From assembly GCA_001724265.1 (NCBI GenBank), contig MEDY01000022.1, forward strand, positions 62,001 through 126,000: 64,000 nucleotides of DNA. The letters are read 5' to 3'. The position numbers and the translations under genes are program-made. Source of the stretch: Rhizaria sp. SCN 62-66. Its lineage: Eukaryota. Shown here in pieces: positions 16,896-55,542 of this stretch; positions within the stretch are counted from its first letter, which is position 1; each line of letters starts with the position of its first letter. The notes beneath the pieces were generated by a model. That model was not told the DNA's origin. It did not search any database and was given only the letters and a program-made list of their open reading frames with translations.

Positions 16896-17070
16896 TTACT
16901 GTTGATCATCTTCTTCATTCTGTTCAGACATGAAAGCAGGCAATGCAACCGACCACTCTGGGTGCACCCCGGTTCCGGCATCAGAGCGCCTAGAACGAGA
17001 CGCCTTGGTGTTTTTTTCGCTTTGACGACTTTGCTGCAAACTCGCCTGAGGCTGCACGAGCCCGTCTTGA

Positions 17071-17116
<46 letters not shown>

Positions 17117-20100
17117 GGGGCTGATTGTGCGGCAATTGTTGTTGATGTAGCTGGGCCTGTTCGGAATGCATCTGCTGTTGATGGTACATTGCATGCTGAT
17201 CCAACTGGTGCTGCTGCTGCTCGTAGTAAGGCTCCTGTGAGACAAAGCCTCTGTCAATATGAGCATGATCTGCAACAGCAGGAGCCGTGAGCTCAAGCGT
17301 CGACATGCCGCCATCGAAGCTGTGTTTACGGTCAACGCCCGCAGCCTCGGTAGAATACTGAGAGAACTGGGCGGAATCCACGGGCTGGTTCATGATCTGC
17401 TGCATATCGTGATGCTCATGTAGCTGTTTGTCTTGCTGTTGTTGGTAAAGTTCGTACTTGTGCCGCTCTTTGCTCTCCATCGCCTGCCGCATCGCAAGCT
17501 GGCGCTGCTGCTCTACCACCTCAGGCTGCTGCTGGTACAGCTCCTCTTGTCGCAGTTTGTCCTGGTGTTGGATGTAGGCTGCGTGGTCCAGGAACTCCTG
17601 CGGCGTCGGGAGCAGGGCGCCGTACTCAGAAACGTAACCAGACTGGAACTGAGCCTGCTGTGCTGGCTGATACTGGTCTGACTGCTGATGATACGCGGGG
17701 TTAGCGTTGAGAACGTCATGAATCGCACCAGCACCATGTCCATGTTGTTCATACTGACCGTCGTAGTTGTTCTGAGAATACACGTTAGTGCTATCATCAA
17801 CACTGCCAGCGTGAAAACTGTTGGGGATGTCGGCATTAGAATAAGACTGGCCTTGATACATAGACTCTTCAATCCGTGTATCAACACCGTGAATCTGCTG
17901 CTGTTGTTGGTATTGCTGGTGCTGTTGGGAATCAGCTTGCAACGGGTCGACTCCTGTTCCGTAGCCGTAACTCAGCGGCACTGGAGCCTCCATCATGCGC
18001 TCCTGCCGTTGCCTCTGCAGCAGTTCGGTCTGCTGACTATAGTCGGACATCGTGGCCTGCCACTGCAGGTACTGGTTGCGCAGATGCAGCCATTCGTTGT
18101 ACAACCCTTCCTGGCGGTACTGGTATTGATCCTGCGTCTCCCAGTCAAACGCGTTCGTGGGCACAAACTGGTCGCCGACGTCTTGCGGCACAGCGAGCTC
18201 GATCTCATGGTCAGGGCGCGGGTACTGACCGTGGTCCACGTAGCGAGGATATTGCCCGATGGCGTGACCATGAGGGTGTTGCTGCTGAGCGGGATACTGC
18301 GCCTGCTGAGCAGATGCATCCCCTGAGTTTTGATGAGCAATAGTACCGTCAGTATAGTGACTGTTGCCAGACGCACCCTCGTAGTTTTGCTCTTGACTAG
18401 GATAATCACTTGCGCCGTAGTAGTTAGGGTCAGAATACTACTGGTTGTGCCCATGCCAGTCAGAGCTGCTTACATCAGTCGCAACATAGTGTCCGTCAAC
18501 AGTTCCGTCATTGTAAGCATCAGCGTTTGGGTTGTACAAGGATGAGTTATCGATATTAGCGCCTGTGGGCATCGGTAACGGCACAACACAGTTTACGTCA
18601 CCAGCTTCGTCGTACGTCTCCTCAATCATAATACCGACGTTCGAGTCCGCGCCGCTTTCACCAGCAGTATCAATCGCAAGACTCTGATGATGAGGTTGGT
18701 GTTGATGTTGATGGTATTGCTGCAGGTGCTGTTGTGACTCCGACAGATCAGGGTGAAGAGCAGTCTCCAGTGCGTTCTGCCAGTCGTCTGGGCTGTTCAC
18801 GTTCACTTCAGCGATCGGCGACTGCATCTGGGAGTCATTGACCGTCCCGGTCTCCGCAGCAGCCGCAGCAGCCGTTGCGGCGGCAACGGCGTCAGCGAAC
18901 GGTTGAAACAGATTCTGCTGCCGCAACTGGTGGATGTGTTCATCGCTCAGCTGCGAGTACACACCCGTCACGAGCACCTCGGTATCACCTGCGTCGTCAG
19001 CTGCTGACTGCCCAGCGTGACCGAGACCGGAGCCCGCGCCGCTGCCGCCAGCACCAGCAACAACGGAAGCGACTTGGCGGTACAGGTGGGTATGCTTCAG
19101 CTGCGCCGGGATCCTGTCGGCGACTGGCTGCAGCGTGCTGGTGACTGTGTTGAACACAGACCGCAGCACACCGTTGCCGCTGGCAGCGCCACGAGCAGTT
19201 GCAGCAGCAACCTGCTGCTGTTGTTGCTGTTGCTGCTGTAAGCGATAGTCACTAGTACTCCCGTGAGCGTTCCCAGCTGCGTCATAGCCATAATAACTAC
19301 TCGCACCAGCCCGGCCGCTGCCTCCGCCACCGAGACCGACGAGCGCGCCGAGTCCGCCGCCTGCGTTACTATTTTGAGCCCTGGACTGCGACGAGTCGCC
19401 TGCAGCAGCCATCGCCTCGCGCGCGGTGAGAACGCGGTCGATATCGTTGCGGTACAGCGCGGTGTGTGTCTTGGCCATCCGGCGCCACTGAAACAGTAGA
19501 TCTCCCAGAGCGTCGCTGGTGACGGCAGAGCGCAGCTCAGCAGCAGCAGCAGAGGGCAGTGAAGGAAACAGAGCGCCGCCGCGGCTTAGCGTCTTCGTAG
19601 GATTCGACTTCACAGAGTGAGTTGCTGCGGCCGTAGTGTGGACAACACGCACGTGTGACTGTGTCGCTGCGGCGCGGCGTGAAGTGGCGGCACGCAGCAG
19701 CGACGTCTCAAGCAGTTGCCCTGCCTTAACAGCGGCGAGCGTCACCACAGCGCTGCACGTGTCAGAGTGACGGTAGCTGACAAACGGCGGCAACAGCACC
19801 GGCAGCGACGCAGCGTGTGCAGCACAAGCCTCGGACTGTTCCAGGTTGCTCAGAGTGGCGGCGCCGCGCCGACCGGCTCCAGTGTTCCGGCTTGTGTAAC
19901 CTGACCCCAGCGCCGGCGAGGTGGCGTCGTCCAAAGTCATTTGGCGCAGAGATATGATCGGAGTGCACGCTTCGGTTGATATACCAGCTGGCACGGCGGG
20001 CGGCTTGGTTGTAAAAACGCGCAACATGTTCGAGAGGCCCAGTGCAGCTGTGCCAAGCTTGGCATCCGCAGCGATGAGAGCTTGAGGTGGGAGGTCAACG

Positions 20101-23100
20101 GAAAGAGCACGAACTGCACTGTTGTCGTCGTTCATATCGCTTGCAGACTCGGTAAAGGCGAGCATAGGCGCAACGTCGGCGTGCGAAATCGATAGCAAGC
20201 GCGGCAGGTGTTGGACCAGCAGCTCGGATACACGATTGCTGGTGGCGAGCGCACTCGCCCTCTGTCCATCAGGACTGCTATTCAGGCCGAGAGTCGGGAG
20301 AGCAACCGTAGCAGAGTCCAACTGCGACGATGCATACCGTGGGAACTGTTTACTAGCGCGCTTGCTAGGATGCAAGCGACCTCCGACAGCGTCGGCAACT
20401 CCGCTAGTGTAGCTATCGAGCTCGTTCAGCATCAAGTGCAAGTGATCTAAGCGCACCGATGACCGCGCCGGGTCTGACAGCGGCACACGCCGCAGCAGCT
20501 GGCCTCGATCGCTGCACCGCGTTCCGGGCATGATGCGGGCGTTAGAGTATGCAACCACTGTGAGACCGAGTGCCTGCTGTTGCTGCTGGTGATGCTGGAG
20601 AAGAGAAACATGTGACTGCGCTGCCGTCGCGCCAGGGGGCGTGCGCGGGAGCTTGCCGCGGACGGTGACGGGCGTGACGGTAAGCAGCAGCTGTTTGCGG
20701 TTTGCGACATCGTGATAGAGGGCGCGTGTTGTGGCGTCAATGAAGTTAGTCCCCTCGAGTGCAATAGGAAGGCGCAACTCATACTTGCGAGCCCGAGCAG
20801 CATTTGCACCAAACGTACTGTCGGCAAGGCTTGATGTGATCGTGCTTTCACTTGGGGCATAGAACAGAGTACGGTGATCTAAAGCGGCTAGCGATGAAAC
20901 AGCAAGAGCCAGCACCGTGTCCTGGTCATTGTGCAGTTCAACAGCGGACTTCGGAGACGAAGATGCTGAAAGCTTAAGCGCGGCACGGCCGTATGCGTTC
21001 GCGACAAGTCCAACAAAGCTACAGAGACCGCATGCATTCGCAGTCACAGCGTTAAGAGCGTCGTGAGCTGTAGCGCTCGTCTCAGAAACTGAGTTTTTAT
21101 CAGCGGAAACCGCGTTGGCCGCAGCGAACACAGTGTTTGTATCCGGTGCTGATGCCGACAGCAGCCGCAGGAGTGTTGTGGTGTGCGCACGGTCTTGCCC
21201 TGCGTTGATGATCACGGGCATCCACCGAGTGCTGTCGACTGCGTAGCCCTGCAGAGCGGGCAGCACGCGCAGCGGCTGCGGGATAATCGCAGTCGCCGCC
21301 GCCACAGTCGCCGTGGAGGCCGCAGAGTACGGGTAGGACGGCATCGGCGACGTGCCCAGTGACGGCGGACTCAGCAGTGGCGCTGCCGGGGTCGCCGCTG
21401 CGGATGCCGTGGCAGTAATCGCGGAGTAAGCCGGCAGCGCGGAGAATGATGACGCGCCGGAGGACATTGGCGAGAGCGTATGGGGAGTCAGCGGGGACGC
21501 ACTGGGGCCTGGGTGCGTAATGTGGGTAGACGAGAGTGCAGACTGAGCGCGGGCTCTATCATTGTAAGCTGCATGAGGGTGTGTAAAAGAGCGGAGAGTA
21601 GTGTGCAGAGCGTCAAAGTTAAGCCGCGTTCGGACGCCCAATTGAGGTGCGTTGAGATGCGCGAGCAACTCAGAATACGAATGAACAGTAATGCATGGAG
21701 CGCCGTCAGTAGAACTCTTAGGTCCGAAGACAGACAACGAAAGAGAATAGAAGTAGCTGCAGTGGGCACATAAAGGGCGATCAGACGCGTCAGAGACACC
21801 TTGGTTCGAAGGCTTCGAAAGGGCCGTCTCATGATCAGACAATAACGGAGCGAGAATGAACATATCATGTGCAATCTCCGAGTTGCGCTGGTTCTCAACA
21901 ACAAGCGCCACAGGGAAGCTGGGGTAGCTGTGACTGGGAATGTTCAGACTGCTGCTCGACGGCACGTGTGCGACAGCAGCAGCGTCGACCGGTGGTGTGG
22001 CAGCATTGCCGCGGTCGCTGCCGACTCCAGGGACGCCACCGCGGCGCCCGTTGGGGTAGGGGTTGTGGTGCGAGAGCGTATTTACCGATGTAAACGAGGT
22101 CAGCGAGTCGGACGACATGAATAGACCAGGCGTCTCACCTGCAACTTCATCGCCGGCGTTGGGGATGTTGCGATGATGGTTAAGCTCGACTGCGGGTGAA
22201 ATCGCAAGCGGCGTATCCGGCCCCGCTTCAGGTGTACCGTCACGGTGCAGAGGGAACCGGTGGCTGTGGCCGCTGACAGCGCCCGAACTGGTGACTCGCG
22301 CCAGCGCAAGACGGTCTCCACCTGCGGCAGAGTGGCCCCCGTGACCTGATCCCAATGGTAGAGCGTTTGTAGACGCGGAAGCCAGTGGATCAATCGCAAA
22401 GTCTGGCATTGTTGCGGACGACACAGACCGCGCCCGTGCCGCTGTTCCGGGACTTAGCGGGTGGGCCACGGGGTGGCCAGCAGTGGCATTCGCATTACCG
22501 GATGTAGCCGAGTGCGCGTGCGCCAGCGCCAGCGTATGTTGCTGCTACTGCTGTAGTGTCGGCGCGGAAGTGTGCGGAGACTGTGAACGCGGGCGCGAAT
22601 GCGAGCTCGACCGCTGCTGTTGCTGATGCATCTGCTGCTGGTAATGTTGCTGCTGCATAACCGAAGATGATTGTGGACGCGTTGCATGGCGGTTGGAGCC
22701 AGAGTCAAACGTCGTGTTAGCGCGAGCAATCGCTCCAAATCCATTGGTATTAGTGTTAGGGCCTGCAGTTAAAATGCGCGCGCGTTGACTTAGTGGCGGT
22801 AGCGGCGCGGCCGAGGCAGCTGCAGCTGGGGCACTGGCAACAGGGACTGCGCTCTGTGGTGACGTGAGCCCAGGAGTACTACGTGTGGCTGCGTTCTGCG
22901 CAAAGTTCAGCCGGCTACGCTGAGTCATCATGCCAACTGCAACAGGCGGCACAGCGGTGACCGCGACATTAGCAGGGTGCTGTTGTTGATGTTGATGTTG
23001 CAGTGGTAGTTGAGGCACCGCAGTTGGGTACTCAGCTACGGGAAACGGAGTATCAGCAGCCGTTGCTGTCGCATTCGTCGGAGTGCCAGCAGTGACCATG

Positions 23101-26100
23101 CCTGGCACCATGCTCCTGATGGCGCCCCAGCCCGTCCACGTCGACGTTGTGACCGCTGCAACCACATTGCGCAGATTGGACCGTGTTGCCTTGGCTGCAG
23201 CAGGCTGCGCACTTGCGCCGACACCAGGTCCGCTGATATTCGCGGTGGATTGCGAGGCTTGCGCATTGCCGTGAGCCAGAGATTGGTATTGCGGCGATGC
23301 GACCTGACTATGGTTGACACCGATGGGTGACTGTGGAGACGCGCTAGCACTAAGCCCAGTCACTGCGACTGTCGCAACGCCGTTGAGGGCAACGGGCGAC
23401 GACGCGTTCTTAATCGGAGACGTCTCGTGGTCAACCATGGATTGTGCGAACTCAGAGCGACTGTTGTCAAGAGAAGCAACGCCCGCGCTCTGCGGGGACA
23501 GCGTTGTCCCAGCTGCAACACGCGAGTACTCACCGTAGCCGCCGTGAGCAGGACTGTTGTGGGCGTGACTAAGCGCGTAGCCGAGCACACTCAGCGGACT
23601 CTGCGGACCCTGCGCCTGGCCGTGATGCGCAGTCGCAGCTGCGAGGCGAGGGTCTGTGACGTCGCTCTTGCGCGGCCTGCCGGCCAGCGCACGCGTAGGG
23701 ACAACACCAGTGCTCGATCCGACGTCGTTGTTCGTCCCGGCGTGCGTGCCTGTCTGCGGCGGCGAAACAGCGGTGTCTGATGACAGTGCGTCAAACGTCG
23801 AGCTGGACGTGTTCGCAGTCAAGCCTTGCTGCCTGAGACTCAAAGCGCGCGGTGTCATCGTCGCATCAGGTGCGACAAACGACGTATCATCACCAGCGGC
23901 ACCGATCATGACACTATCCGAGGCAAACGACATCCCGCCGTCGCCGTCAATGTCAGTGAAGATTGGCTGTGCGACGGCATTCTTGGCGTGCATAAACTGG
24001 CGCTTGAATTCGGCTGATCGTTTCTCGGCAGTTGCATCAGCTTGGCGCCGTGACTCCTTGCGGGCGCGACTAGCATGCTCCTTGATCGCACTCGAAACAA
24101 GGTCTATCGGGACAAAGACACTTGACACGGGCGAGAAAGTCTCGTTTTCTTTGTTGCTCATGGAGTTATCTTCGTTAATGTGCAGCTTCATTGGAAGCGT
24201 AAACGAGACTGGAAGCAGAACGTTTGGATCGTGCGGCAACGCAGTCATATAGACGTCGCAGCCTGAAGGTGGGAAGCCAATGCCAGTCTGGGGGTCCACC
24301 TCACCGTGAGTCGACGAGCAGCCGCAGCGACTAAGCACAAGAGGTTCCGTGCTCACAGCGACGCGGAAAGCCGATGACTCCGCAGTTCCAAGCAAAAGCA
24401 CAGCTGACTCAACAGTAACGCTATTGCTGGTGAGCGCATACCACCTCTTGTCAGTCGAGTCAAACATCGCCCACACAGTCCTTGCAAACGGATCAGCACG
24501 GCAGCGGCTTAACTTGTCAGCATCACACAGTGAGTCCGCACCGCAGCGCAAGATCTCCCTTGCGCGCGCCACCAGCAGATTCCCGCAGTGCACGGAGGTA
24601 ATTGCAGAAGTAGTGATTGAGCTGCGAGCGACAATCGGTGACAAGTCACTGATTGAGCTCACTGCACAGCTCGCGTTTGCAACAGCAACCGCAGCATGAA
24701 CTGCGGCACTGGACTGAGGAATTGCGTAAGTGTGTTCCTCGGCTGCAGAGATCAAAGCAGCAGTGTAACCCCGGGCGTCGAAGCTCAGATGTTCAGCCTT
24801 GTTGATAGTCACGGGGACGAGCGCGTGTGCAACCAGCGCGCTCCTGCTGAGCAGCTGCGCAAACACGGCCGCGTTCATGCCTGCGCCACCGCCGCCGGTC
24901 ACGGTGCCGGTCGCGCGCTGCGCCTGCGGCAGCGTCCCGCCCGCGGAGCCGGAGAGCGAGGCAGACGCGAGCAGGTCGCGCAGGTGCGCCAACTCCTGCA
25001 GCGCGCCTGACTCTTGTTGGGGAATCTGGACTGCCACAGTCGCAGGGCGCTGGGGCTTGGTCTGCTTGTTGCTGTTGTTCGCATGCTGTCGCTAACTAGA
25101 CTGCTGTTGCAGTTGTTGACGGGCAGGGGTGCGACGAGTCGCGTTGCCTCGTTGGTCGTGTGCGATACTATTGGAGTTGTTGTTAGCAGTAACGGCGGGT
25201 TGGTGTTGCGGGTGTTGCTGGTGTTGCGCAATCACAACGTTATCTGTGAACAGAGCGCGGCGTGAGGACGACGAAGACGACGATGACGACGACGACGAAG
25301 ACCGTGGACGACGTGACGCCGTATTGACCACAGTTCCAGTAGCGGCAGCGGCAGCGGCTGGGGTACGACCAGCAGCAACACGCACTCCGGGGCTGAGCTT
25401 CGAGCTGTCCCCTGTGTTTGCAGGCACGCTCGCGGCAAGCGACCCTGCAAGTCCGGACGCAGTTGCAGGGGCGTCACGCTCCTCAGGTGGCAGGAAAGAT
25501 GACAGAGCGAGCACGCCGCCACCTGTGTGGGGAAACGAGCCCAGAGCAACAGCAGCTGCGTCGGGAGCGAGACGCGCGGAGGAGTCTACGCCGGAGTCCT
25601 TAACGATGTTGCTGTTGCTACTGGTGTTGTAGAGAGACGTGTAGAACTTGAAAGTTGCCAGTCGCGACTGAATGTGATGTAGTTGCTGCTGCTGATTAAT
25701 CGGAGCTGATGGATGCTGATAGTTTTGATCAAGCACATGCTGAAGCCGCGCCGGTGTGTGCGAGATACACGCGGTCGCAAGCATTCCTCTGCTGCTCGGT
25801 GTGGCCACCACGGTGGGCATTGGCAGCGAGTCGATCGTTGTCTCAAGCGTACTGTTGCTAGCTGACTGGGACAGCGAGGCTGATGCCAACGTCGCCGTTG
25901 TAGTTTCGTTACGTAGGCGTACATTCGCAATAGACAGAGGAGCTGTAAGAGCCCATTGTAGCATGGAGCGGCGAAACCAGTCTTCGGCGCCGGTCACGTA
26001 GTTGTACCCATTGACCCACCGCCCATCGTCCGCGGTGAGATTGATGGCACTTCCGGACGCTGTCGCATAGGACAGCGCTGAACTTGAGCTCGAGACCGAT

Positions 26101-29100
26101 GCGGCGGATGAGCTCGATGTAGCAGAGTCAGTTGATACAGCAGCTGCGTTGTTAAGAGTCACAGTGAGACGAGGACCGCCAACCCGCGCGATGCGGTCAA
26201 ACACTGGGCCAACGTGATCATCGCGGCCGGTCAATGACAGTGACTGTGCGGAGTATGCAGGCAGAGAGACTGCAGAGCCGCCGCGGACAGGATACAGAAA
26301 CGCAAAGGGGTGCAGTGTTAACGGCGCATTTCCATTCCTGTTCATGTTAGATCCCTTGCTAATTTGCTGAATCTGTGGCAGATTAGTCATGATCTTGGCA
26401 ATAGCACGCGTTTGGTCACGTGCGCAGAGCAAATCATGTGACGGTGCGGCAGTCACAAACACATGTGCTGTCATCGTCGCAGCAAAGGAAGCGCATAATG
26501 TGCTGACTGAGGGAGCAAAGGCACCGAGTTTGTTGGCGAACGCTGCAGGAATCGGGGCAAAAGCACTGGCGACAAGAGGTACCGTGAGCGCAAGCTCCCA
26601 GTCGACACGGGCACTGCCAGAGGCAGATGTCTTGTCCGATGAAGCTGGCGACGCGACTCGAGCTGCGTTCGGTGGGTGGCGTAACGAGGCAAACAAGTCC
26701 TCCTCAGCAGCAGCCGTAGACGCAGTCAGTGCATGCGCGCCCGCAGCCGCGTAGACAGCAGCGCCGTCGACAGGCAGCGTACTGTGCACGACAGCAGCGC
26801 GAGCAGCGGAAGACAAAGCATTCGCAAGCACACACTGCACAGACAGGCCACCGGTACCGTTGTCACTTGATTGGTCGTGTTTATGGCCAGTAACTGGCAC
26901 AGTTAGGTACGACCAAGGGAACAGGCGGCGGCCACTGTGAGATGTTTCGAGGACAGAAGTCCAGGTAGGAGCGAGCGCAGAAGTTAAGCCGCCAGAGGTT
27001 GGAGCGTGTGAAGCCGTCAACTTGTCGTGGGCGTTTCCTTCACTGTTCTTTGAGCTTGCAACAAGCTCATCATATGCGCGCTGAGCGGCATGCAGCTTTG
27101 TTGTCAGAACCTCGATCTGGGTGACCGCAATCGCAAGCGCACCGACACCGCCGCCGCCACCGGATCCCGGCAACGCCCATGGCGCCACGTCACTACCCGC
27201 GGTCTCACTGGCCGCGGCGAAAGCAGACGGCGGGGGCACTGACGCGGACACCACGGCCGCACCGCCAAGAGTGCCAGCGCCACCGGTGACGAGCGCAGCA
27301 TACAGAAAGGCGGCGTCCGTGGCCCCGGTGCGGGCAACGGGGAGGTACGCCTGAGAGTCATGCGCCAGTGCGAGCGGGATCGGCAGCGATGACACAAGCG
27401 CCACAGCAGCCGCGGTCGACGCGGTAGTTGCAGCCACGGCGGCAGCAGCACTCGCAGCATTAACGCCATTGAAGCCGCTGATGCTGTTGTTTGCAATATG
27501 ACTGGCATTGGACGTTGGTGAAATGTTGTGCAGGGCAGCGGCATGTGCAAGGCCGTGTTGTGACTGTTGCGGGAGCGCGGCTGCTGCTGTGATCGCAGTT
27601 GACAAAGCAGTTGCGAACGTAACGGCTCCGGTATCGGGCTCATCGCTACAGTCACTCGCGAGGGCAGCGACGGCGGCGCCAGCAGCAGCACACTCGCCTG
27701 ACATCACGGTCATGTCAGCAGCAGGGACAGCGCCGGCAGCAGGGGGGGGCGTGTCCAGCGGAATGGCATCGTTACTCACTGTAACATCATTAGAATTCAG
27801 AGATGCGGCGTCAGCTGCAGACACCGCAGCAGTGTTCGTCGCTGCAACGTGCGCCGCCCGCGGCGTGCCGACGGTCCCCGCGCTCTGCACTGGCACTGAC
27901 GGCGCCGAGGTGGGCGCGGCGTAGTGCTGCAGCGTGGCGGGACCCTGCGCGGCGGAGGTGCGGAACACTGTCGCGTTCGCGGGCGTCGACTGCCGCACCT
28001 TCATGTCGCCGCTGAGGCGCACTGAGCCGGTGACGTCCGGGTAACCGTGAGCTGACGCAGCGACTGCGGCAGCCGCGTGAGCACCAGAAATGTGCTCGCC
28101 CCCAGCCATAGTAGATATCGCGCCGCTGTTGTTGTGGCCGTTATTGCCGCCGCTGCTCCCATGCGTGGTACGACGCGTCGCCTCCTCGTGAGACATCAAC
28201 GGAGCGGGCACAAGCGCAATAGGCGCGCGGGCGGTTCGCAAAAAGTCGAGCGACCGGGCGCCGTCCTCGCCTGGATTGGGCAGCACTGCGGACAGACGGC
28301 CCCATGCCCCGGACAACGCAGCTGCAACAAACCGCACCCGGCGGCGCGCGGCCGCGAGTGCGCGCCTTGAAGGGGCAGCAGCCGACGGGTGTGACTTTGC
28401 GACGGGACCGTTGTCGCATGAAGTAGCGGATGTGGGATACAACGTCGACGCTGCTGGAGTTCCTGGTGGTAGCGTTGGTGTAAGCAGCTCGTATTGCAGC
28501 GCGGTGCCATCAGCGCTCGCAAATGCAGTGCTATGCAACAGCGCGGAGATGGCGCCAGCGGTCGGGATCAAGCCGCCGTTAGCGGCACGCGACCACGAAG
28601 CCAGTTGTCCAACCGTGATATCGTTGCCATCACTTCCCTGAGTCGCAGCCTTGGTGTGGCACGAAGGCACTGCGGCCGCCCGGGTGACTGTGAGCGCTGC
28701 AATGAGATCATTCGCGTGCGCCGCAGCGAGTGCACGGCGCAAACGCGTCTTAGGCGCCGGGATCGGGACGGTCACCACTGTCCTCTCGCAGTCACTACTG
28801 TTGGCAGTGACGAGAGTGTCCTGTGATCGGAGCACTAATGTGGCTGCGCGGGCGGAATAAGCACGCAGTGCAAGTGAGCGTGAGTGAACTTCAACATCTT
28901 TCTCAAGTGATGTACAGGCATCAACATCACGGCAACGCTCACCGACAGCCTGAGAGTGGTGCGTGCTGTGGCCGGGACTACGACTGTGATGACGGTGTTT
29001 GTTTACACACTTCTCGCAAGTTGTCCTACCAAACACATTGACTGTTGTTTGGGAATTTCCAGTCATTGGACGCAGTTGAGCGGCAAGTGTTAACGCCTCG

Positions 29101-32100
29101 CTCACAGTGACCTGCGGAAGTTGGTACGTCGTATGGGGCACCACGACAGCGCCCTTAATCGACGCGTCAGTGCCGAGAGGAAACGCAGCCGCGGCGGCCA
29201 GAGTCTCCTGCCTGTTCGCGACCACCACGGCGGAGTACGCGGGAGGCGTCAGCAGGGCGGCGCAGCGCAGGTGGTGCCAGTGGCCGCCAGCGCCGGTGGC
29301 GAGACTGTGCGAGGGCCCGGTGCCAGAGTAGTTTACACCGTATGAGGGGGGCAGCCAGTATGCGAACGTGGGCATTGAATGCACTCCACCGGAGACAATG
29401 CTATAAGCCTCAGCCTCGGTCAAAGTCACTGCAGCGTCACTCACGAGTCGCGAATGCTGGAGTTGCTGTTGCTGTATATGCTGCGCTGCGACCTGGTCGG
29501 CCCGCGCAATTGCTGCCGCGACGGCCGCCGTGACCGCGATCGCGGGCGACGGCTGGAGCGCCGCGGCAGCGGACCACGCGGCCAACGGTGTGACAGCGCC
29601 CGCGAGAGACGACGAGGGCAGCGCAAGTGAGAGCGCCTTGTTGTCGGTCGAAGTCGGCACGCGCGCTATGCCAGTCGCGGACAGTGCGGGGGGCACGTGG
29701 GCGTTGACGGTGACTGTGAGCACAGTTGGCTTCGTGTCGACATTGTCCACGCAGTGACTCCAGACTGCGTTGTTATTACTGCGCGTATTGTTGCTAAGCG
29801 TGATGCGGGTCGGATGGCGAGCCCAGGGATCGGCGACAGTCCGATGTGCAAGATGTGATGCCACGACGGCCGCAGTCAGCAGAGGCACATACTCAGGCAC
29901 GGCAGACACAACGGGCTTCGTAGTGCCGAAACAAGAGCTGTGAGAGCTGTACAGAGGAAGCTTGGCGTCTGGCACAGACACAGTGGGAATAACGAGATCA
30001 AGCATGGGAGGCAGCGGAAGAGCGAAGTCATTTACACGGTCACCACGGAGACCAGCTGTCGTAGTGTCGCCCAGGAATAAACGACGTGCCAAAGAGTCGT
30101 TGAGCAAGGGATCACCGGCAGTGTTACGCTGGCAGCCACACTCAACATCATCGCAATCACTCTCAGTGTCAGAGCATGAGGCACGGGCATCGGCGTTCGA
30201 TGCATCATGGCTATCGTCATCATCAGCAACGTCGGCAGCAGAAGCCGTCGCTGTCGCAGCAGAATCAGCATCTGAGCTGTTGCTGCGCTTCGAGTGACTC
30301 GTAGACGTCCGGCCCTTGGCTGCAGACTGCACACGCTTCTTAGACTTCGGCTGAGCCCCAGCGTCGGTGTCCGACTCTGACTGCGAGTCCACAAGGACAG
30401 AGCTCGTCTCCACCGCACGCCGCAGTCCCCACCGCGGCCGGCCTCGCAGCACGCAGTCGTCGCCGCCGTGCGCGCCGTATAGCCCCGACCGGGGGTCCGT
30501 GCCGGGGCCGAAGGCGCTGTCCGTCGCGCCGGCCGCGGAGACTGCGCCCACGGTAGCGTCCAGCATACTCGCGGCCACGGTGCGCGACTGGCCACGCGCT
30601 ACCCGCAACACGGCATCAGCAACTGCGTTCTTGGCGCTGACGCTGGCGCTGAGCTGCGGCTGAGAACGGGGTTGCGAGACTCCGGGAGTGTTGTTGCGCG
30701 CGGCGTCGGTCGCGGTGTGTGGTGACCGGTGGGGGTCGGTGTCAACGCCGGCGCGCGCAAGAGCTGCAACGGTCGCGCGGTAAAGACCGTCAATGCCTGC
30801 AATCCCGCCCTTTGCAGCACCGGTGACCCCGTCAGGAATGCGATGTGACACAATGGAGCCAGTCGATGAATCGGTAGATAGACCGGCAGCATAAGCGCTC
30901 AACAGCGCAGTGTTGCCAAATGCGCACTGGTGAGCCAGTGTCGCACGCGCAGGACCAGCAGCAGCAACGTTATTGTTTGCAGAAACCAGAGCAGAAGCAG
31001 TGCCGGCAAACCCACCACGCAGCGCAGCCCACGCAACTTGACCACGACGCGCACGGGCAGCGGCGCGCTTGCCAACAGCATTCACATCGCTTGCATCATT
31101 AACTCCGAAGCTAACAGTGCTGGTGCGAGGCAGAGTGCGCAGATACGCATCCTCGCCGCACCACGGCGCTGCGACTGTGCGCTCAGTGAAAATGCCGTCT
31201 TCAGCGCGCAAGGCACAGCGCAGCGCTGCGAGGAACGCGAGGAACGTGTCCACAACAACGCCAGTACGCGTCGTGATAGGCGCAAAAGCGGACGTGGTGT
31301 AAGGCGGGCTCGCATCAGTCAAACCTGCAGCGGACTGACTTTGAGCCGTATTATTGAGCGCAGCAGCAACGGTCGCAAAGTCTTGCTTGAGGTCAATGTT
31401 GTTTGCGTCGTTTGTCAGTGCAGACGGGTTCTCCAAGAAGTACGCCGCAAGCACCTTGGCCAGCACCCGCTGCGCCTTCTTCTCGCGCTTCGAATCATTC
31501 TTCGCCGAGACCTTGCCGGACTGCGCAGTCGTGTTGGCAGACATCGCGCTGGCGACCGCCAGCGTAGCCGAGAGCAAGGCGTCAGAGACGGTATTTGCAC
31601 TGGCAGGCAGGCCAACCAGCCGACCGGCCGCGGCGCCCGCAGCAGCAGCCGCAGCGTTGCCAGTGCCGCCACCGGCGCCGGCGCCATTGCCGCCACCAGT
31701 GGCTGCATCGGCAGTGGCGGCCGCGGCCGTGAGCCCAGTGAGTGTCGCCGAGAGCGTGACGGCGTCGCCGGCCTTGCCAGCCCCCGCGGCCGCAGCGCCA
31801 GCGCCGGCGGCACTGTGCGCGTTGGCCGCGCTCGCCGTGCCAGTCGCGACAGCGCCCGCAGCGACGAGCGACGTCACCGCGTGCGCGGCCGCGGTCGCGG
31901 CGGTCGTCGCGGTCGCGGCCACGGTGGCTGCGAACGCCGAGCCCGCGGTGAAGCGGGCGCCGCGCGCAAGCGCCATTTCGAACTCTACGGGCCCGGTAAC
32001 GTTGGCCTGCGCGGTGGGCTCGGAGAAGAGCGGGCACTGCGCCAGCGCGGCCGTGAGTGCGGCGGCCACGGCGTCGGGCGACGGCGGCGACAGCACCGGT

Positions 32101-35100
32101 GCGAGCGAGCGGCGCGGGGTCGCCCGGTGAAGCTCGCGCGCGAGGACGGCAAAGAAGCGCGGCGTGAGCCCAAGGCGAGTCATCGGGGCCAGCTGCTGAT
32201 GTTGCTGCTGCTAGTGCTGCTGCCGCTGGCGATATTGCAATGCAGCAGACGCAGACGCACGGGACGCAGCGAGGCGCGCAACCGTGCCCGCCGGAGAGGA
32301 CGTGAAGGCGAGGTACAACGACTGCGGAAGGGTCGGGTAGCGGTACAGACCGGAAGGCCAGGGGGTGACCGCGGGCAGAGCACGGCCACTGGTGGAGATT
32401 GCGCTGGCCACAGCGCCGGCAGCGGTTGCGGCACGTGCCGCAGCCGCTGCAGAGTTATGATTCGCAACGCTGTTGCAGGCATTGACACTCTCAGCACGTG
32501 GGCTGGTGTTACTGTTCGCAGCAGAGCAAGAGCGAGCGGTGCTGTTCACACTTGCGTCAGAGTTGGCGAGCAGTGTGAACAGGTCGCTGTCGTACGCAGC
32601 AGGCACCGGCACGGAGAGCACCGCGGCGCCCGCTCCGCCCGCAGGCGCGTGCTGACCGGGGTACTGGCCCGCCCCGGCAAACATCAGGTCGGCGGCGTTG
32701 TGTGAGCCCGCGGCGACGGCGTAGGCGCCGCGCATCGCCGTCGCGGCCGACACGCCACGCAAGAGGGACGCTGTGAGCACCGCGGCGCGGCCGGCGGTCG
32801 CAACGACGTCGGAGTCAGCGCTGAGAGTCAATGAGTTCGTGTACGCTTTTGAGGGGGTGCTCACGTTAGGCGCAAACGACTCGCGATAAGACTCAGTGTC
32901 AGTGCAAGAGAACAGCGCACAGAGAGTAAATGCACAGCGCAAAAGCGACTCGGCATTGGGAGGTAATCCAAGAAAACGCACGAGCAAGTCAATGTACACC
33001 GATGTAAACGTGTTAGCAGCCTTGTTGCTTGCAGCAACAACAGCACTTGTGTTGTTCATACGATCGTTTCCAGAGCTACCTGTTTCAGGGACAACCGCAC
33101 CGGCGTTATCAGGGGTCAAATCACCAGCAACGCGCGCGTCGCCGCTGTCCGCACCTGCATTGGCGTGCTCGTTGCGCACAGTCACTGCGCCGCCATTGCT
33201 GACGTTGATATCGCTGTAGTTCGTGGTCGCCAGCGCCGCGCCCCAAGCAGACCCGCGCAGGTAGGCGCCGATGCGGGCCGCCAGCAGCAGCGGCGGAACG
33301 CCCGCACCCGGCAGCGGCGGCGGCGCAGACCCGGTGGGGAAGCCCGCGGCGGGCGCGAGGGGCCGCCTGTAGAGGCGTTGCGCGTGGCGGTGCAGCGGCG
33401 AGTGCGGGCTGATGAGGAACGCAACGAAGGGCGAGATCTCAGTGTCACTGTCGTTGTTGCCGGGAAAAGCAGGGAGTGTACTCTCCGGTGACTGCGAGTT
33501 CAAGTGTGCAATCGTCGCCGCTGTTGTTGCACCTAATGCTGCCGTTGTTGCTGATGCAGGTGAGCCCGCACCGAACGTGCGGCGCACAGTGTCGGTCACT
33601 GTGGTGAGACCGTGGGTCACAAGGGACACTGCAGAGTTGGTCACTTTTGAGAGCAACGGCTCGACAGGAACAGGCGGGGCAGTGGCCGGCAGAGTGTGAG
33701 TCAGCAAAGCAAGATAGAAAAACAACTCAGAGAGTCCTGGAACAACGTCAGCGTTAGATTCAGCGCTAACATTGCTCTTATTGCTCGATTTGTAGCGTTG
33801 TACCCACTGAAACCACTGCTTGATCACCCTCGCGATCGCAGCCTCACGACCACTGCCGCCTGTCTGTGCTTGTGAGTTAGACTGCGGCTGCAACTGTGAC
33901 CGTGAGTGGGACCGGTACACACCGAGTCCCAGCGTCGCATCGAGATACTCTGCGGAATACGCGGTTGCAGTGCGCAACGCCACAGCGAGCTCGGATTGGC
34001 CCGACAGCCCCTGATGCACCGCGTTGCTGACCGTCACTGGGACTAGCCCACCGCTGCTGCCGCCGCTGCCGCCGCTGTTGCCACCGCTGCCGCCGCCGGC
34101 CGCCAGCGCCCAGATGGACGCGTGGGGTGCTGGAAAAGGCAGCGTGAGCGCGGCAGGGCGACTGTGGGCCGAATGACCGTGACCGCCCCCGGTTCCAGCC
34201 GCGCCGGCGCCGCTGTGCAGGTGCGAAGTCGTGTCCAGTGAGTGCGCGAGCAGGTAGCCGTGGTTGAGACCGTGAGCGGTGAACGCGCCGCCGCCGGCAG
34301 TGAAGCCGGACGATGGGTCGGCGGCCGCAGAGTGTTGGCAGTGCAAGTATCTGTCCACAGTCGAGGTCGCAAAGCCGTGGTTGATCCGCGCACTCTGCAG
34401 TGCGTGCGAAATCGCACTTACGCAGTCACGCTCGGTCAATGTTACGTCTGCGGTGATGTTGTTTGACTTTGCCACGTTCATCAGCGGCGTGGTGCTCATC
34501 GCCGGTGAATTGGACGATTTCTTACCAGAGTTCGCATGCAAGAGCGCGCGGCCGCTAGCACCCGTGACCGTGGGCAGCATGCGTGCCATGATCATAGCGG
34601 CCAAACTAGCCGTGTACTCGCCGCAGACCACGCCCGCGTCGCCCGGGGCGAGCAGGTGACCGTGGACAGCGCGATGCAGGGGGGTTGCGCCATCGGCGGC
34701 TAGCCCGACAGGAGGGCACTTGACGCTGAACACGGGAAGCAGACAACCACCGGTCACAGAGCCGTCATTGTCGAGTCGGCCCATTACGTTGATGTTACCG
34801 TAGGGGTCAGCAGTGGTAAGAGAGTGCAATTGGGCGCGCGCGTTGGCTTGGTCGAGCTCGATCTTATCATAGTCTTCATTGCGCGAATTCACGTCAACGC
34901 TCAACAAACTGGCACCAATGCCTGCATTTGCACTAAAGTTGACACCGGCGTTGTTGTACGCGTTATTGACGCCGTTGATGCCATATGCAGCAGCACCAGC
35001 GCCCAGATTAGCAATGCGCGCAAGTCCAGCCGAAATACCGCTTCCGATGCCACCGGCAATACTCGATGGTGTGACACCGTTGCTCGTGCTGGCATTCGCG

Positions 35101-38093
35101 TAGATCGCGGTGTGCGGTGTCGCCGTCAGCTGGCTCGCCCGCGCGCCGTGCGTCGCGACGGCCTGCGAGAAGACCATCGCCAGGTCCACGGTGTCATGCG
35201 GCGCCGTATACGTGGAGTCAGAAAGAATGTAGATGTTGGCCGGGATGGCGACTGTGGCGGAGAAAAAGGTCAGTCGCGCGACGTCTAGCAGCTGATTTTG
35301 GTGCACAAATCCGTGCGTCGTCGGTGCAGTGTGGCGCTTGTTGGACTCTGCAGCGTTCTTGCCTGTGCTGTTATTGGCAATGCTTTGATCTTCTATCGGA
35401 CCCAGCAATGTGGGGCGGAATTGTGCGCTGGTGTACGTCACATCAGTGTCATCCTTCCTGTCATGAAGCTGTTCGCGTTCGATCTTGCCCTCCTCGGAGG
35501 CATCGCTGTCGCTGTCACTGTCGCTGCCATTGTTGTTGCCGGCATCCGTGAAGTCGGCGTCGTCGGAGTCGTCGGCGCAGTCGGCGATCTCCGGCAGCGC
35601 GATGACCTTGCTGCCGAGCGCGTGCACGTCGAAGATCCGCACCACGCTCAGCACGCGCGCGGCCACGGCGCGGTGCACGGTTGCGCGGAGCGCGTGGTGC
35701 CACTGGAAGTGGGCCGCCAGCAGCACCGGCAGCGACACAAGACCCGCGCCATGGGGCTTGTTCACCAGAGCGGCTTGGGTCACGGGAGATGACGATGAAG
35801 ACGACGCAATCGAACGAGTCAGTGGGAGACGGAGTGTCGTAGCGAATAGCAATTGCGCAGCGCGCAAGTGGCGCAGCCCCCCGCGTAGCGACCGTGGTCC
35901 GCTAGCATTAAACGCGGCGAATGACTGTGAACACGCGTTGTAATACGCAATCGCAGCGTTCATAGCGTCAGCAGCCGTCGCAGGAACAACTGGCACGAGG
36001 CACACATCGTTGCGCGCAACAATAGCGCCGTCGGCATTCACTGTCACCGTATCTGCCGCACCAGTCTGCGCATCACCACTCGCACGTGCACCCGCCCCCG
36101 CAGCAGGGGCAGCGGCGTTGGCAACCAAGGCCTCAGAGGCGGCGACTGTGAGTCTGACCGGCGGCAGCGAGCGCAGCACCGGGTCCGCGGCCACGTTGTC
36201 CACGGCGGGGCGCCACCACAGCGGCAGTCGCAGTTCAGCAGCAGCAGCAGCAGCAGGAGAGCAACTGTTGTTGCACTTCTCCTCCTCACTGTGATTCGCA
36301 TTAGCGATCACAGACTTAGCGTTGGTGTTGGCACCACCGGTCGCAGCAACGGCGGCGGCGACCTCTCTGGTCGCCGGCGCCACCGCGGCCGAGACAGAGG
36401 CCGACGCGAAGCGCAGCGCCACTTTGAGGGCTTCGACGCGCGCGCGCTCGGCGGCCACATGCGTGCGCAAAGCGGCCAGCGCGGCCTGACTTTGGAGCAT
36501 AACGACCTGACTTTGAGACAGTCGCGGACTCGCCACAGTTTTGTTAGCCTGCCTGTCCTCATTAGTTGCATCAACAGTCGTTTTAGCCGCTATCCTGGCC
36601 TTGAGGGCCGCAAGCGTGGCCTCCGCCGCGTCGGCCTTAGCCTTGATCGCAGCGGCACGGCGCCGCGTCTGTGCCAGCGCCACCGTCTCCGCGTCGGCCT
36701 GCGCCTGTGCGACGGCCGTGCGGGCAGACAGCTCGGCCAAAGAGCAGGCCCAGTCTGATAACACACTGGGCTTGACGAACACAGCGGGTTCCGGCGTCAC
36801 AGCCGGGTGCGCGGGATCGACATAGCCGATCGCCGCAGTCTGGGTTGTGGTCTTGGACGTATATGTGGCGGCCGCGGGCCCGCGACCAAAGAGCGAGGCA
36901 AAGCCGTCAGCGCCTGAGCTGATGTGGGCGAAGTTAAAGTATGGCTTAAAGGTCGACGGGTGCGGAAAGGGCGCAATCGCGTTGTTATAGATGGTGTTGC
37001 TGTTCAATTTGATGTTGAAGCTCATTCCATCAGTACGCGGCGTCAGGTCGGCAGCGCCATTGACGACGTTACTATTGTTGTGCGCGTTATTAAGGCCACC
37101 GGGAGCGAACGTATTGGCAAACGGTGCAAACGCCGAGTTGGGAGCTTGCACAAACCCACCAGTGGCGTGCGTTTGCTGCATAATAGGACTAAAGAACTCC
37201 GCATAGTTCATCTCGTGCGGCTTGAAGAAGTCCTCGTTGACGTGCGTCGGGGTCAAGACGGAGTACGACGATGACGGCGCCCGCTGCTGCTGTTGAGACA
37301 ACTGAATTTGTTCGTACTCGTGTTGCTGCTCGCTCTGCAGTTGCTGTGGCGAGGGCTGCGGTTGCTGTTGTTGCCGTGTGTTGTAGTTCGAGTTGGAGCT
37401 CGGGCTAGAGCTGGGTACGGCTGCCGTAGCACTGCTACGTGTGGTGGTGTAGTTGTCTGCATTTGATCTTGACGCAGGGCCACGAGCTGAGCCAGCATCA
37501 GACTGTCCAGAGGCAACAGCAGGAGTAGCAGCGTTCGAGTTGCTGTTGCTGCTTGCAGGGGGGCGTGCGGGTCCGGCAACAACAACAGCAGCTGCAGCGT
37601 TTGCCGCTGCAATACCTGCGATGTTTGCGTTGATTGCGGTCTGGTGAAACACGTCATGCGGCACTGGAGCCATCACTCCCGCCGTCGCGCCCTCAGTTGT
37701 CAGTGTGAGCGCAGCCAGCAGCGGCGAGTGCTGCGGCTGCACATCGACTGCAGCGTGTGTTGCTGTCGCGGTGTTGTAGTGATGTTGGTGTTGAGAAAGC
37801 GCGAAGACGACGGCAGGTGTGTCGTCCTCATACACGGAGGGGACGACGTCGACGGCAGGGGAGAAACCGTCGCTGTCGCTGGGGTTAACGGTGAGCGCGG
37901 GGAACACGCCCGCAGTCCGCCCCGGCACAGCGAGCCCTGAGACTCCCACTGGCGAAGGTGCTGTGGTGGCCGCAGTGTTGACTCCGCCACTGGCAGCACC
38001 GCTAGCGGCCGACGCTGCAGCGACGGCTGGCGACGATGGGGCAGGTTGGGACGCGGCAGGCAGGCCACTATGGCTAGGCCCAACAGGCTGCAT
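16896..38093 (-). CDS. Giant uncharacterised protein, ~7065 aa, one reading frame containing four in-frame TAG codons
   Basis: ORF-track segments 32211-38093, 25092-32183, 22545-25037, 18438-22469 and 16896-18239 share one frame. I translated the four gaps by hand: each is open and separated only by a single TAG. No AT-rich spacer or intron-like sequence lies between them. The frame ends at TAA 16898-16896, followed by AT-rich UTR. Ala/Ser/Thr/Gln-rich; no family recognised. Confidence 0.85.
17071..17117. repeat. (TGT/CAA)n coding microsatellite, poly-Gln in the giant ORF
   Basis: Perfect tgt run on the + strand, read as CAA repeats on the minus strand. Confidence 0.95.
18438..18440 (-). other. 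In-frame TAG codon (putative Gln)
   Basis: Context ...HGHNQ[TAG]YSDPNYYG...; frame stays open to 16896. Confidence 0.8.
22545..22547 (-). other. In-frame TAG codon (putative Gln)
   Basis: Context CTA CAG CAG TAG CAG CAA CAT = LQQ[TAG]QQH, inside a poly-Gln run. Confidence 0.85.
25092..25094 (-). other. In-frame TAG codon (putative Gln)
   Basis: Context RQQLQQQSS[TAG]RQHANNSNKQTKPQRPATVAVQIPQQ; frame continues. Confidence 0.8.
32211..32213 (-). other. In-frame TAG codon (putative Gln)
   Basis: Context CAG CAG CAC TAG CAG CAG CAA CAT CAG CAG = QQH[TAG]QQQHQQ. Confidence 0.85.
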
Positions 38094-42100: not shown

Positions 42101-42172
42101 AACGCCTGCCTCAAGTTCTCCCACAAGGACAACGGCAAGATCAAGTGGCACCTCCACAAGGAGGTCTTCTAA
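39141..42172 (+). CDS. NADPH oxidase (NOX/gp91phox family) with N-terminal SH3 and fused p22phox-like domain (~915 aa)
   Basis: Exons 39141-39173, 39312-41174 and 41321-42172. SH3: ARVEYDY...DELTLKVGDIVEI...DGWVTG...GVFPGNYV. Haem His pairs KLHKLIAW...IGHTVAH and FEIFWITHMLY...LIHG. FAD motifs QWHPFTISSAP, HIR, GSWT. NADPH motifs HGPYAAP, SGIGVTP, FIWV, GRPKW, VTFCG, HKEVF. Stop TAA. Confidence 0.93.
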
Positions 42173-42810: not shown

Positions 42811-44490
42811 ATGACTCTCTTGCTCGTGTGCCTCATGCTCCTGCAGATTGTGAATGCTAGCAGCTTGTTTAATTCTTTGCAATTCAGCAATTCACAACAG
42901 CAGCAGCCGCAGCTTCAAGAACACTTCTTTGATCGACGCGCCACGTTTCAAAACATCAACCCATCGCAGCATCAGCAGCAAATCGCCCTTGCATAGCAGT
43001 CTCCGCAGCAACGACAGCAGCTGCTGGACCAACAACTGCAGCAGCAGCAGGCACAACAGCAAGCGTCAAAAGAGATTCATCAGAACCCTCAGGGCCCCAT
43101 GCCGAGGCTGCGGCCGGATACAACCTCTGGACTCGATCTCTGTTATGCGTTAGTTGATACAAGCTACAGCGCACCGCCGGTGCTTGAAATAGCCGGACGT
43201 GGGCCATCGGTGTACACAGCTCCCAGCTACGGTGGCTACGGCGGCTCCAATGGCGGCAACGGGCTGGTGAGTAGAGGCGGCAGTTTGCAAGGACAGATTC
43301 CGGTGCAACAAATGCCGCAACAGCCAATTCAGCAAAGTCTGCGGCTTGGTATACCGTTTTCATTTGAATATAGTGGATACAAGCCGCTATCTCCACTATC
43401 AAGCGTGTCCAACGATATTTTAACTCGAATCAACTTGCTATCGTCGAGCGAACTGTCACAAACGCACACGTTCGTGACTCAGCAACAGCCGTATCAATCA
43501 TATCCTCTGCAGCAACAACAGCCCTATTACCAGCCTGCTCCGACTTACCCTGTTAAACAGCCGTCGTATCAAAAACCGGCGCCGCCTGCAGTCACCGCGA
43601 TCTCTGGTTACCGAGGCACGTACAACAACTACGGCCCTCCCATCCAGTACTACCACGGCGACGGATATGGCTACGCTGATGCAACGTATGAGTTCTCGTA
43701 TCTACCAAAGTACGACTATTACCAGCCGCCGACTTACACACCGCCGCCGCAACCCACTTACTCTCAGCCGCAGTCGGCATACGGAAGCAACGGCGGGTAC
43801 AGTAGCGGAAGCTACAACAGCGGCGTCCCGCAGTCCGGAGCGCAGCCCATCATCGCCGAGGCGAGCGACGTCGCCGACGTGTACTGGGCGCAGGAGCGGC
43901 TGCACCAGCTGGACCGGCAGCGCGTTGTAAATGATGCCGCGGGCGTGGGACAGGGGCTGCCGCAGACGCGCCTGATGGGGCAGGGCATCGGGGTGCGGCG
44001 CTTTTCGCTTGACACACCAGCGCCAGCAACTCATCCCCAGCTTTTTTTGTCCGGACACGGCACGAACACGCTTGCGGTGTCATATGGCGGCGCTCCAGCG
44101 ATGTCCTACGGCAAGGGTCTCTCTTCGTCCAAGGGAATGCAATCCTCTCAGCAAATGCAGCAGCTGCAGGGTAGCACGTACATCGGGGACAAGCCAAGCA
44201 CGTACACTGGCAGTAGCAACACAGGGATGCACTATGGCTACAACAACGCATACAGCGGCGCAAATAGCAACTACAATGGTTACAGTGGTTCCAATAGCTA
44301 CAGCGGCGGCTATAATACGCCACAGTACACGACAGTCCGACCCATCGAAGAGTTCCGAATCCCGTTCAACACCGGCGGGGTAATGGTGGGACGCAACGGG
44401 CTCGGTGGCAGGGATGCGGGCGGCAGCAACAACTGGGGCATCAGGTCAGAGTTCAACGACGGCAACTCGTGGGGGTGGGGAATCAACTGA
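42811..44490 (+). CDS. Secreted Gln/Tyr/Gly/Pro-rich protein (559 aa) with one in-frame TAG
   Basis: ORFs 42811-42996 and 43099-44490 are in the same frame and joined across TAG 42994-42996; the gap reads QSPQQRQQLLDQQLQQQQAQQQASKEIHQNPQGP. N-terminus MTLLLVCLMLLQIVNA looks like a signal peptide. Stop TGA. Confidence 0.8.
42994..42996 (+). other. In-frame TAG codon (putative Gln)
   Basis: Context SQHQQQIALA[TAG]QSPQQRQQ. Confidence 0.8.

Positions 44491-55505: not shown

Positions 55506-55542
<37 letters not shown>

Follow-up and report, generated by a model that had tools for sequence, protein, structure and literature searches.

Among nuclear genetic codes, UAA and UAG nearly always shift meaning together, and the few cases in which the two are uncoupled give leucine, glutamine or serine. 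Reassignments restricted to UAG have been reported for the rhizarian exLh (Leu) and Iotanema spirale (Gln), both treated in PMC5304391, and for phyllopharyngean ciliates (Leu or Gln), Protocruzia tuzeti (Gln) and Scotinosphaera (Ser), as listed by McGowan et al. 2024 (PMC11687900); where the latter account deals with glutamate, UAG=Glu is given only alongside a sense UAA. Here we describe a stretch of 64,000 nt (the window) from a genome assembly deposited as Rhizaria sp. SCN 62-66 (GCA_001724265.1, contig MEDY01000022.1, positions 62,001 to 126,000 of the forward strand), in which five consecutive 'genes' of the standard-code annotation very probably constitute one giant gene, its single frame being split because UAG is read as sense genome-wide. 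A code in which UAG stands for glutamate while UAA and UGA are retained as stops is, in our view, fairly probable. No report of it was found in the open full-text literature, a body of text that leaves subscription papers mostly outside, and the combination appears to be new.

On the minus strand of the window, from 38093 down to 16896, a single intronless open reading frame (ORF) opens with ATG, extends for 7,065 codons with TAG taken as sense (protein P0001) and closes with TAA. Its only internal stops are four TAGs, with no TGA, whereas about 72 TAG, 29 TAA and 21 TGA would be expected in such a frame from its positional base composition. The TAGs occupy codon 1961 (32211..32213, in a Gln-rich linker), codon 4334 (25092..25094), codon 5183 (22545..22547) and codon 6552 (18438..18440). 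The first-pass annotation had suspected a hidden intronless gene whose five segments share one frame and lack the AT-rich spacers seen between other genes; the frame and the absence of spacers are both borne out, and the single gene itself is supported, the reason being that UAG is read as sense throughout the genome. Over the 500 nt that follow a TAG, the GC content is 0.46 to 0.81 in each case, and nowhere does it fall below 0.45 in a 150-nt interval of the ORF; over 500 nt after the final TAA it is 0.28 to 0.44, and in five spacers between neighbouring ORFs 0.36 to 0.48. By coding score the giant frame ranks first of six in all 48 windows of 150 codons, under a model that is partly circular, as pieces of the giant gene were within its training set. 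A fragment of the giant gene, 1,323 amino acids (aa) long, is listed in a protein collection as a separate protein (P0122).

Under the standard code, the same stretch would hold five separate genes, or else a pseudogene or an assembly artefact with four nonsense changes, and this we consider very improbable. The TAGs are not assembly errors: assemblies from other studies carry three of the four, with the second unchanged in bridging contigs of runs X3 and X4, the third in one of run X5 and the fourth in those of runs X3 and X5. The first TAG (32211) lies within no listed contig piece of other runs, and no differing letter is reported there. Runs X7, X8 and X10–X14 form no part of this comparison. 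Separate genes would find their start codons in the methionines present downstream of the TAG in each later segment (aa 1971, 4406, 5229 and 6682). Contigs of polyA-RNA (run X9) map to segments 1–4, which speaks for the single gene, and none among those listed spans any of the four TAGs, which counts against it; but no TAG is followed by a spacer-like drop in GC content, and not a single TAA or TGA has accumulated in the 7,065 codons. Decay could likewise be suspected from the six single-base strain differences in the gene, four of them non-synonymous, and from a TAG elsewhere in the genome that replaces a Trp conserved in two paralogues. On the other hand, the sole gene found for the release factor eRF1 would itself be dead under the standard code, and a tRNA with the CUA anticodon is present (see below). 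Moreover, the orthologue P0123 (a partial hypothetical protein of 1,299 aa from a JGI metagenome contig) is continuous across the region of the fourth TAG and collinear with aa ~5881–7065 of the giant protein, and segments 4 and 5 are therefore joined across that region. All things considered, read-through of the four TAGs is very probable.

The window contains a fifth in-frame TAG (42994..42996, plus strand), located inside an ORF at 42811–44490 whose N-terminus, judged by eye, resembles a signal peptide. All five TAGs of the window lie in or next to Gln-rich runs. The size of the giant gene has a parallel in the genome, as a kinase match on contig C53 falls in an open frame of 7,102 aa that also includes a TAG; the 10 kb of this second giant frame that were read (L079, C53:69001-79000) are open throughout save for TAG.

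UAG and its decoding across the genome

Stop-codon use was surveyed in 157 partly overlapping loci of the same genome, de-duplicated by flank (1,023,328 bases, or ~1 Mb of 35 Mb). The first stop met by coding stretches was TAA in 70 cases, TGA in 53 and TAG in 25. Once the stops at most 36 nt from a splice-donor-like motif had been set aside (29 TAA, 10 TGA and 9 TAG), the coding signal was found to persist past 12 of 16 TAGs, compared with none of 41 TAAs and none of 43 TGAs. At the remaining four TAGs, the frame stays open for 982 more codons, reaches a TGA after 16 or 17 coding-like codons, or meets a TGA at once. Among the 16 TAGs in the sampled loci, none standing alone is clearly the end of a gene; the only sampled gene that ends with TAG, encoding a peptidase of family S49 (L050), has a TGA directly after it, and five further apparent ends at TAG fall within introns, shortly behind a GTACG donor. 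UAA and UGA, never seen as internal sense codons in the sampled loci, are kept as stops, with TAA the commonest.

In 135 long ORFs, TAG accounts for 32 of 163,560 codons (~0.02%) and is rarer than even the rarest sense codons tallied (ATA 66, AGA 109, TTA 149); the counts for glutamate and glutamine codons are 6,543 (GAG), 983 (GAA), 5,389 (CAG) and 892 (CAA). It is commonest in weakly biased ORFs, with 28, 10 and 9 occurrences per ~65,000 codons in successive tertiles of codon bias. In-frame TAGs are found within intact conserved proteins, namely eRF1, five kinase matches and a ubiquitin-like domain. The kinases, in which the TAG stands between intact motifs, represent 5 of 142 matches; four others of the nine with a lone TAG were dropped since the TAG is an intron acceptor site, and two more because of mixed stops inside introns. 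TAG is also contained in 2 of 18 dynein AAA_6 and 3 of 88 Helicase_C matches, and in none of 20 ABC_tran matches, none of these serving as a site in the comparisons below. When 17 further peptides flanking TAGs were compared with Pfam, 16 had no match at E 0.01 and one had a weak match below the cut-off.

A tRNA gene with the CUA anticodon, called by ARAGORN, resides on contig C84 (locus L038, 1489–1561, minus strand); it is followed by a T run and scores 58 bits against Rfam RF00005 (cut-off 29). A pattern search for the CUA anticodon gave four matches, comprising this gene and three genes for tRNA-Leu(CAG). The tRNA(CUA) is identical to tRNA-Glu(CUC) at 47 of 73 positions (64%), among them those of the T stem and of the five outermost acceptor pairs, and matches tRNA-Glu(UUC) at 46 positions with gaps; a Met tRNA reaches 46 as well, with many gaps. 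For most other tRNAs the aligner slid off, and a numeric ranking against tRNA-Gln is therefore unreliable. The stems were compared by eye, by which the acceptor ends of both tRNA-Gln types of the genome are unlike that of tRNA(CUA) and do not fit a derivation from tRNA-Gln. The sequence A36-A37-A38, the usual signal for the i6A37 modification, is present in tRNA(CUA), while tRNA-Glu(CUC), for which there are eight identical matches against the one gene for tRNA(CUA), has A37-C38. The anticodons UUA and UCA did not turn up in the 43 loci scanned with ARAGORN, no search having been aimed at them. By its sequence, tRNA(CUA) would thus be a descendant of tRNA-Glu, presumably charged with glutamate.

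The genome yielded three Pfam matches in a search for release factors, of which one is eRF1 and two, on contig C34, look to us like pelota. The only eRF1 gene found (L031/L086, contig C63) has an in-frame TAG in the region encoding the N domain, within a strongly codon-biased sequence, and some read-through is therefore needed to make any release factor at all. A metagenome contig that is 100% identical (L141), and that may derive from the same sample, carries the TAG too. Scanning metagenomes with eRF1 retrieved this contig and 79 loci at no more than 71% identity, and no close relative with flanking DNA. The column occupied by the TAG is Glu in all 120 members of one set of homologues and Glu (109) or Asp (10) in the 119 of another. 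One or other of these residues is thus found in every one of the 239 homologues (Glu in 229), the protein P0127 being left aside; P0127 is the closest relative of this eRF1 (84% identical; the other best matches are at most 72% identical).

Six substitutions in the eRF1 (T32S, M34V, G57S, T58K, L124M and K130Q; human numbering, anchored on the GTS motif) affect columns that are invariant in 120 of 120 homologues. The motifs of stop recognition thus appear altered, with GSS in place of GTS, KASNIKS in place of TASNIKS and K130Q in the YxCxxxF stretch; Ser70 is unchanged. Thr32 forms a hydrogen bond with the G of UAG, and Iotanema, with UAG=Gln, has T32G, as described by Panek et al. (PMC5304391). 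T32S might weaken the grip of eRF1 on a third-position G. P0127 has M34V and T58K in common with the eRF1 studied here, and it may mark the state before the reassignment.

The residue proposed at UAG

When alternative residues were placed at six TAG sites, the summed Pfam scores were 457.7 bits for Glu, 456.1 for Gln, 455.6 for Lys, 451.4 for Ser, 446.7 for Tyr, 444.9 for Leu and 441.6 for Trp. Leu, Tyr, Trp and Ser, 6–16 bits below Glu, were rejected on this basis. Among the alignment columns with a TAG, one is strongly Glu, one has Asp in paralogues (a kinase site, Asp in both of them), two have Gln, one has Trp and two are variable. Assuming read-through of the four TAGs in the giant gene, glutamate is rather probable as the main residue; taken as a whole, the proposition that UAG is read as Glu stands somewhat better than even. 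Glu-derived CUA tRNAs accompany UAG=Glu also in the ciliate Oligohymenophorea sp. PL0344 and in Blastocrithidia, according to the accounts in PMC10553269 and PMC12153298.

Several observations weigh against this assignment. Glu exceeds Gln in the Pfam sum by just 1.6 bits; the TAG in the ubiquitin-like domain corresponds to Gln in five of five aligned paralogue stretches, and one kinase TAG site aligns to Gln in MST1/2. In a Sel1-like protein (L080, 2875–3414, minus strand), the TAG stands where two of two paralogues have Trp, which may be either a tolerated radical change or the mark of a decaying copy. The contexts of 27 TAGs are unlike those of Glu codons (log-likelihood −8.2; GAA controls, −0.8 to 4.9), and for Gln codons they border on the low end of the range (−0.6; CAA, −0.3 to 8.5). 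The minimum-energy fold of tRNA(CUA) contains only two cloverleaf stems (z −1.5). P0127 retains T32 and G57 and has Val at the TAG column, which is therefore unconstrained in this lineage. T58K occurs in Tetrahymena and Blepharisma too (PMC4695839, Table 2) and is therefore not diagnostic. Finally, according to PMC9976931, Escherichia coli can load Gln onto amber suppressors that have U35.

Much of this would suit a rival in which the gene and the reassignment are the same but UAG means glutamine, as in Iotanema, with glutaminyl-tRNA synthetase charging tRNA(CUA) by way of U35, or with a second CUA tRNA that was missed. The first-pass annotation had implied as much in proposing a search for orthologues with CAG or CAA at the TAG positions; glutamine turns out to be the weaker of the two candidates, given the resemblance of tRNA(CUA) to tRNA-Glu and the TAG in the Glu column of eRF1. 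The Gln-rich surroundings of all five TAGs in the window are what glutamine would lead one to expect, yet CAG to TAG is a transition, and TAG is therefore to be expected in poly-Gln linkers under either code; in tolerant regions it may arise from CAG, TCG, TAY, TGG and GAG alike, so that the four sites in Gln-rich linkers fit both. A mixture model of the contexts gives CAG-like and GAG-like shares of 0.46 and 0.01, respectively, with the window sites included, but the CAG-like share drops to 0.02 without them. A test of contexts under mixed origin does not separate the two residues (observed E−Q value −1.3; simulated 5–95% ranges −1.5 to 3.0 and −2.8 to 1.4). The Gln residues at the TAG sites of ubiquitin paralogues and MST kinases, as well as the behaviour of U35 suppressors, remain on the side of glutamine; the sole CUA tRNA among the four pattern matches, the tRNAs that go with UAG=Glu in PL0344 and Blastocrithidia, and the 239 eRF1 homologues with Glu or Asp are against it. 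We regard glutamine as unlikely, and were it the residue after all, the code is a new independent instance of a rare one.

UAG might, alternatively, be ambiguous, with tRNA(CUA) contending with an eRF1 that still partly recognizes UAG, such that read-through and termination both occur, the giant gene yields nested truncated forms and the TAG in the eRF1 gene possibly acts as a feedback switch. The extreme rarity of TAG, especially in strongly biased ORFs, would accord with this, as would the mildness of T32S, the single tRNA(CUA) gene facing eight identical matches for tRNA-Glu(CUC), contexts unlike those of a settled synonym, the one gene ending in TAG-TGA and the presence of a TAG in eRF1 despite its strong codon bias. 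Against it, clear gene ends at a lone TAG are absent among the 16 TAGs, and four ambiguous codons in one ORF would steeply lower the yield of the full-length product. The tRNA(CUA) differs from tRNA-Glu at 26 of 73 positions and is therefore not a fresh suppressor. As regards eRF1, a chance TAG is expected in ~8% of genes of ~440 codons at the sampled TAG rate, and the relative P0127 has Val at the position. An ambiguous UAG is accordingly quite unlikely in our judgement. More doubtful still is the full scheme for this GC-rich wastewater flagellate in which UAG=Glu is held at a stage of competition between the Glu-derived tRNA(CUA) and a weakened eRF1, with the UAG of eRF1 serving as a negative-feedback switch, resembling that of bacterial RF2, which sets all UAG read-through, that of the four codons in the giant gene included.

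If UAG is a codon for glutamate, it would be created where point mutations strike any of several neighbouring codons within disordered linkers, which is where all four sites of the giant gene lie. Its great rarity would then reflect its dependence on a single tRNA gene in a genome rich in GC.

The giant protein, its neighbours and its host

The similarity between P0123 and the giant protein extends over several collinear features. The most conserved block (19683..20453, minus strand, as are all features of the protein; ~aa 5881–6137) has 34% identity over the best 182 aligned positions. It is followed by two predicted amphipathic helices (aa ~6192–6230 and ~6307–6339; 19077..19520) with collinear counterparts in P0123, by a low-complexity tail rich in Gln, Tyr and His (16974..18746), matched in P0123 by a tail of similar composition (Gln/Tyr/His/Gly-rich), and by a C-terminal motif (HPxW..; 16899..16964). 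The top match of the P0123 C-terminal motif across the whole giant protein is indeed its last 22 residues (score 43, the next being 35). The two proteins differ in that identity is confined to ~34% even in the best block, and P0123 has no Pfam match. A phmmer search among 1.84 billion representatives, with aa 5334–6200 alone as the query, gave two matches, namely P0123 (E 1e-8) and the 1,323-aa fragment of the giant protein itself. The earlier notion of a conserved scaffold inflated by insertions is supported for the C-terminal sixth of the protein only, through this one relative.

The three CxxC pairs noticed previously are present at codons 3026 (CEKC, 29007..29018), 5442 (CAHC, 21759..21770) and 5688 (CGLC, 21021..21032), versus 0.49 expected, and 22 of 2,000 shuffled sequences reach three; the latter two pairs may form one zinc site. 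Windows with at least 35% large hydrophobic residues hold 11% of the residues. One helix (aa 1420–1437) exceeds the shuffled 95% level for amphipathy. No convincing transmembrane segment is apparent, most of the six most hydrophobic 21-mers containing prolines, and neither internal repeats nor, among the genome loci fetched at the time of comparison, a paralogue of the protein was found.

As the first-pass annotation had conceded, the family cannot be named. None of the five whole segments matched Pfam; 26 overlapping tiles and P0123 gave a best E-value of 0.0095, with nothing at the curated cut-off. NCBIfam (0/8), a PDB sequence search and the ESM Atlas (0/2, aa 601–1960 and aa 5380–6250) provided no usable match, and a word-index homologue search with aa 5380–6250 returned only the protein's own fragment, missing P0123 too. 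AlphaFold, suggested at the outset, was run on two pieces, aa 4381–4720 alone and aa 5881–6250 with P0123; both models are unusable (pLDDT, the predicted local distance difference test, 38 and 35, respectively). We tentatively picture the product as a soluble, non-enzymatic, mostly disordered and lineage-specific scaffold, whose short amphipathic helices, possible zinc site and conserved C-terminal motif might bind membranes or partners.

The giant gene is neighboured by several genes of recognizable identity. On the minus strand these are an SMUBP-2/IGHMBP2-like helicase that bears an AN1 zinc finger and that Ala-rich insertions have enlarged to 2,167 aa (9802–16305), a C-terminal exon of a peroxiredoxin identified by eye (50127–50600) and a TmcB-type PAS protein (59507–64000). 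On the plus strand there are a syntaxin-like SNARE (7303–8235), an apparently intron-split gene for an NADPH-oxidase/ferric-reductase that has an SH3 domain at its N-terminus (39102–42172), and a PEX5-like TPR protein (54919–57824).

The source assembly is eukaryotic (34.9 Mb in 714 contigs). Its ~11 dynein heavy-chain loci indicate a flagellate. Sampled words of the genome occur in 12 sequencing runs from eight studies, four of which runs hold half or more of them, the sources being bioreactors and wastewater. The small subunit ribosomal RNA (SSU rRNA) gene (L042, 1501–5945, 4,445 nt) is divergent and interrupted by four Rfam group I introns and, towards the 3' end, probably by one more intron; it includes an ORF for a His-Cys-box homing endonuclease (PF05551, E 1e-14); its contig, C706, is part of the same assembly and only presumed to come from the same organism. 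No polyubiquitin was seen in the eight loci read (L133-L140) of 23 ubiquitin matches. These loci comprise several single-unit genes with a Met-Ser-Met start and a three-residue extension at the end, some with internal deletions, and the monomers begin Met-Ser-Met-Gln-Ile-Phe, i.e. with an extra Ser. The extra Ser is reminiscent of the insertion of one or two residues at monomer junctions in the polyubiquitin of Rhizaria (Cercozoa), as described in PMC13746701 and PMC3014934. Together, the ubiquitin Ser and the divergent, intron-rich SSU rRNA gene hint at Rhizaria, without placing the organism. Rosculus vilicus was considered and set aside, as its description (PMC10770858) gives 37.7% GC and flagella not observed, to be compared with the ~11 dynein heavy-chain loci here.

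Relation to known codes

Release factors may regulate themselves through their own coding sequence, as exemplified by the frameshift in bacterial RF2. A circuit of read-through and nonsense-mediated decay likewise autoregulates plant eRF1 (PMC5397192). The eRF1 gene studied here resembles both in that a stop-type codon lies within the region coding for the release factor itself, but it differs in that the codon has a cognate tRNA and that the site is not conserved in P0127.

As UAG makes up merely 0.02% of codons, codes of this kind are easily missed, and long genes are silently fragmented in automatic annotation. The present genome supplies the tRNA, the release factor and the codon usage together, and codon capture can therefore be tested against an ambiguous intermediate; enrichment for proteomics is realistic, since several studies have produced runs, from wastewater and bioreactors, in which DNA of the organism turns up. 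If confirmed, UAG=Glu with the other stops intact would be a plausible first step towards codes with UAR=Glu or with UAA=Lys and UAG=Glu.

With the known UAG-only codes, the code proposed here shares a sense UAG, a retained UAA stop, a predicted or found CUA tRNA and a change of eRF1 Thr32, as in Iotanema; what sets it apart are the proposed glutamate, used by none of them, and the extreme rarity of UAG. Oligohymenophorea sp. PL0344 (UAA=Lys, UAG=Glu), as described in PMC10553269, also reads UAG as Glu with CUA tRNAs nearest to tRNA-Glu (69–93% there, 64% here). However, UAA is a sense codon and UGA the sole stop in that ciliate, whereas TAA is the commonest stop here, and it has ten CUA tRNA genes, compared with the one found here. 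Blastocrithidia (UAR=Glu, UGA=Trp; PMC12153298) and peritrich ciliates (UAR=Glu; PMC11687900) are alike in having a Glu-derived tRNA(CUA) and in avoiding the codon in highly expressed genes, but both UAA and UAG specify Glu in them, while neither TAA nor TGA was seen as an internal sense codon here and Ser70 of eRF1 is unchanged. In Blastocrithidia, the reassigned codons reach 1.4–2.3% and are linked to AT pressure (PMC12153298), the force that the model for that lineage invokes; the reassignment proposed here would, in contrast, have taken place in a GC-rich genome, the window itself having a GC content of 61%.

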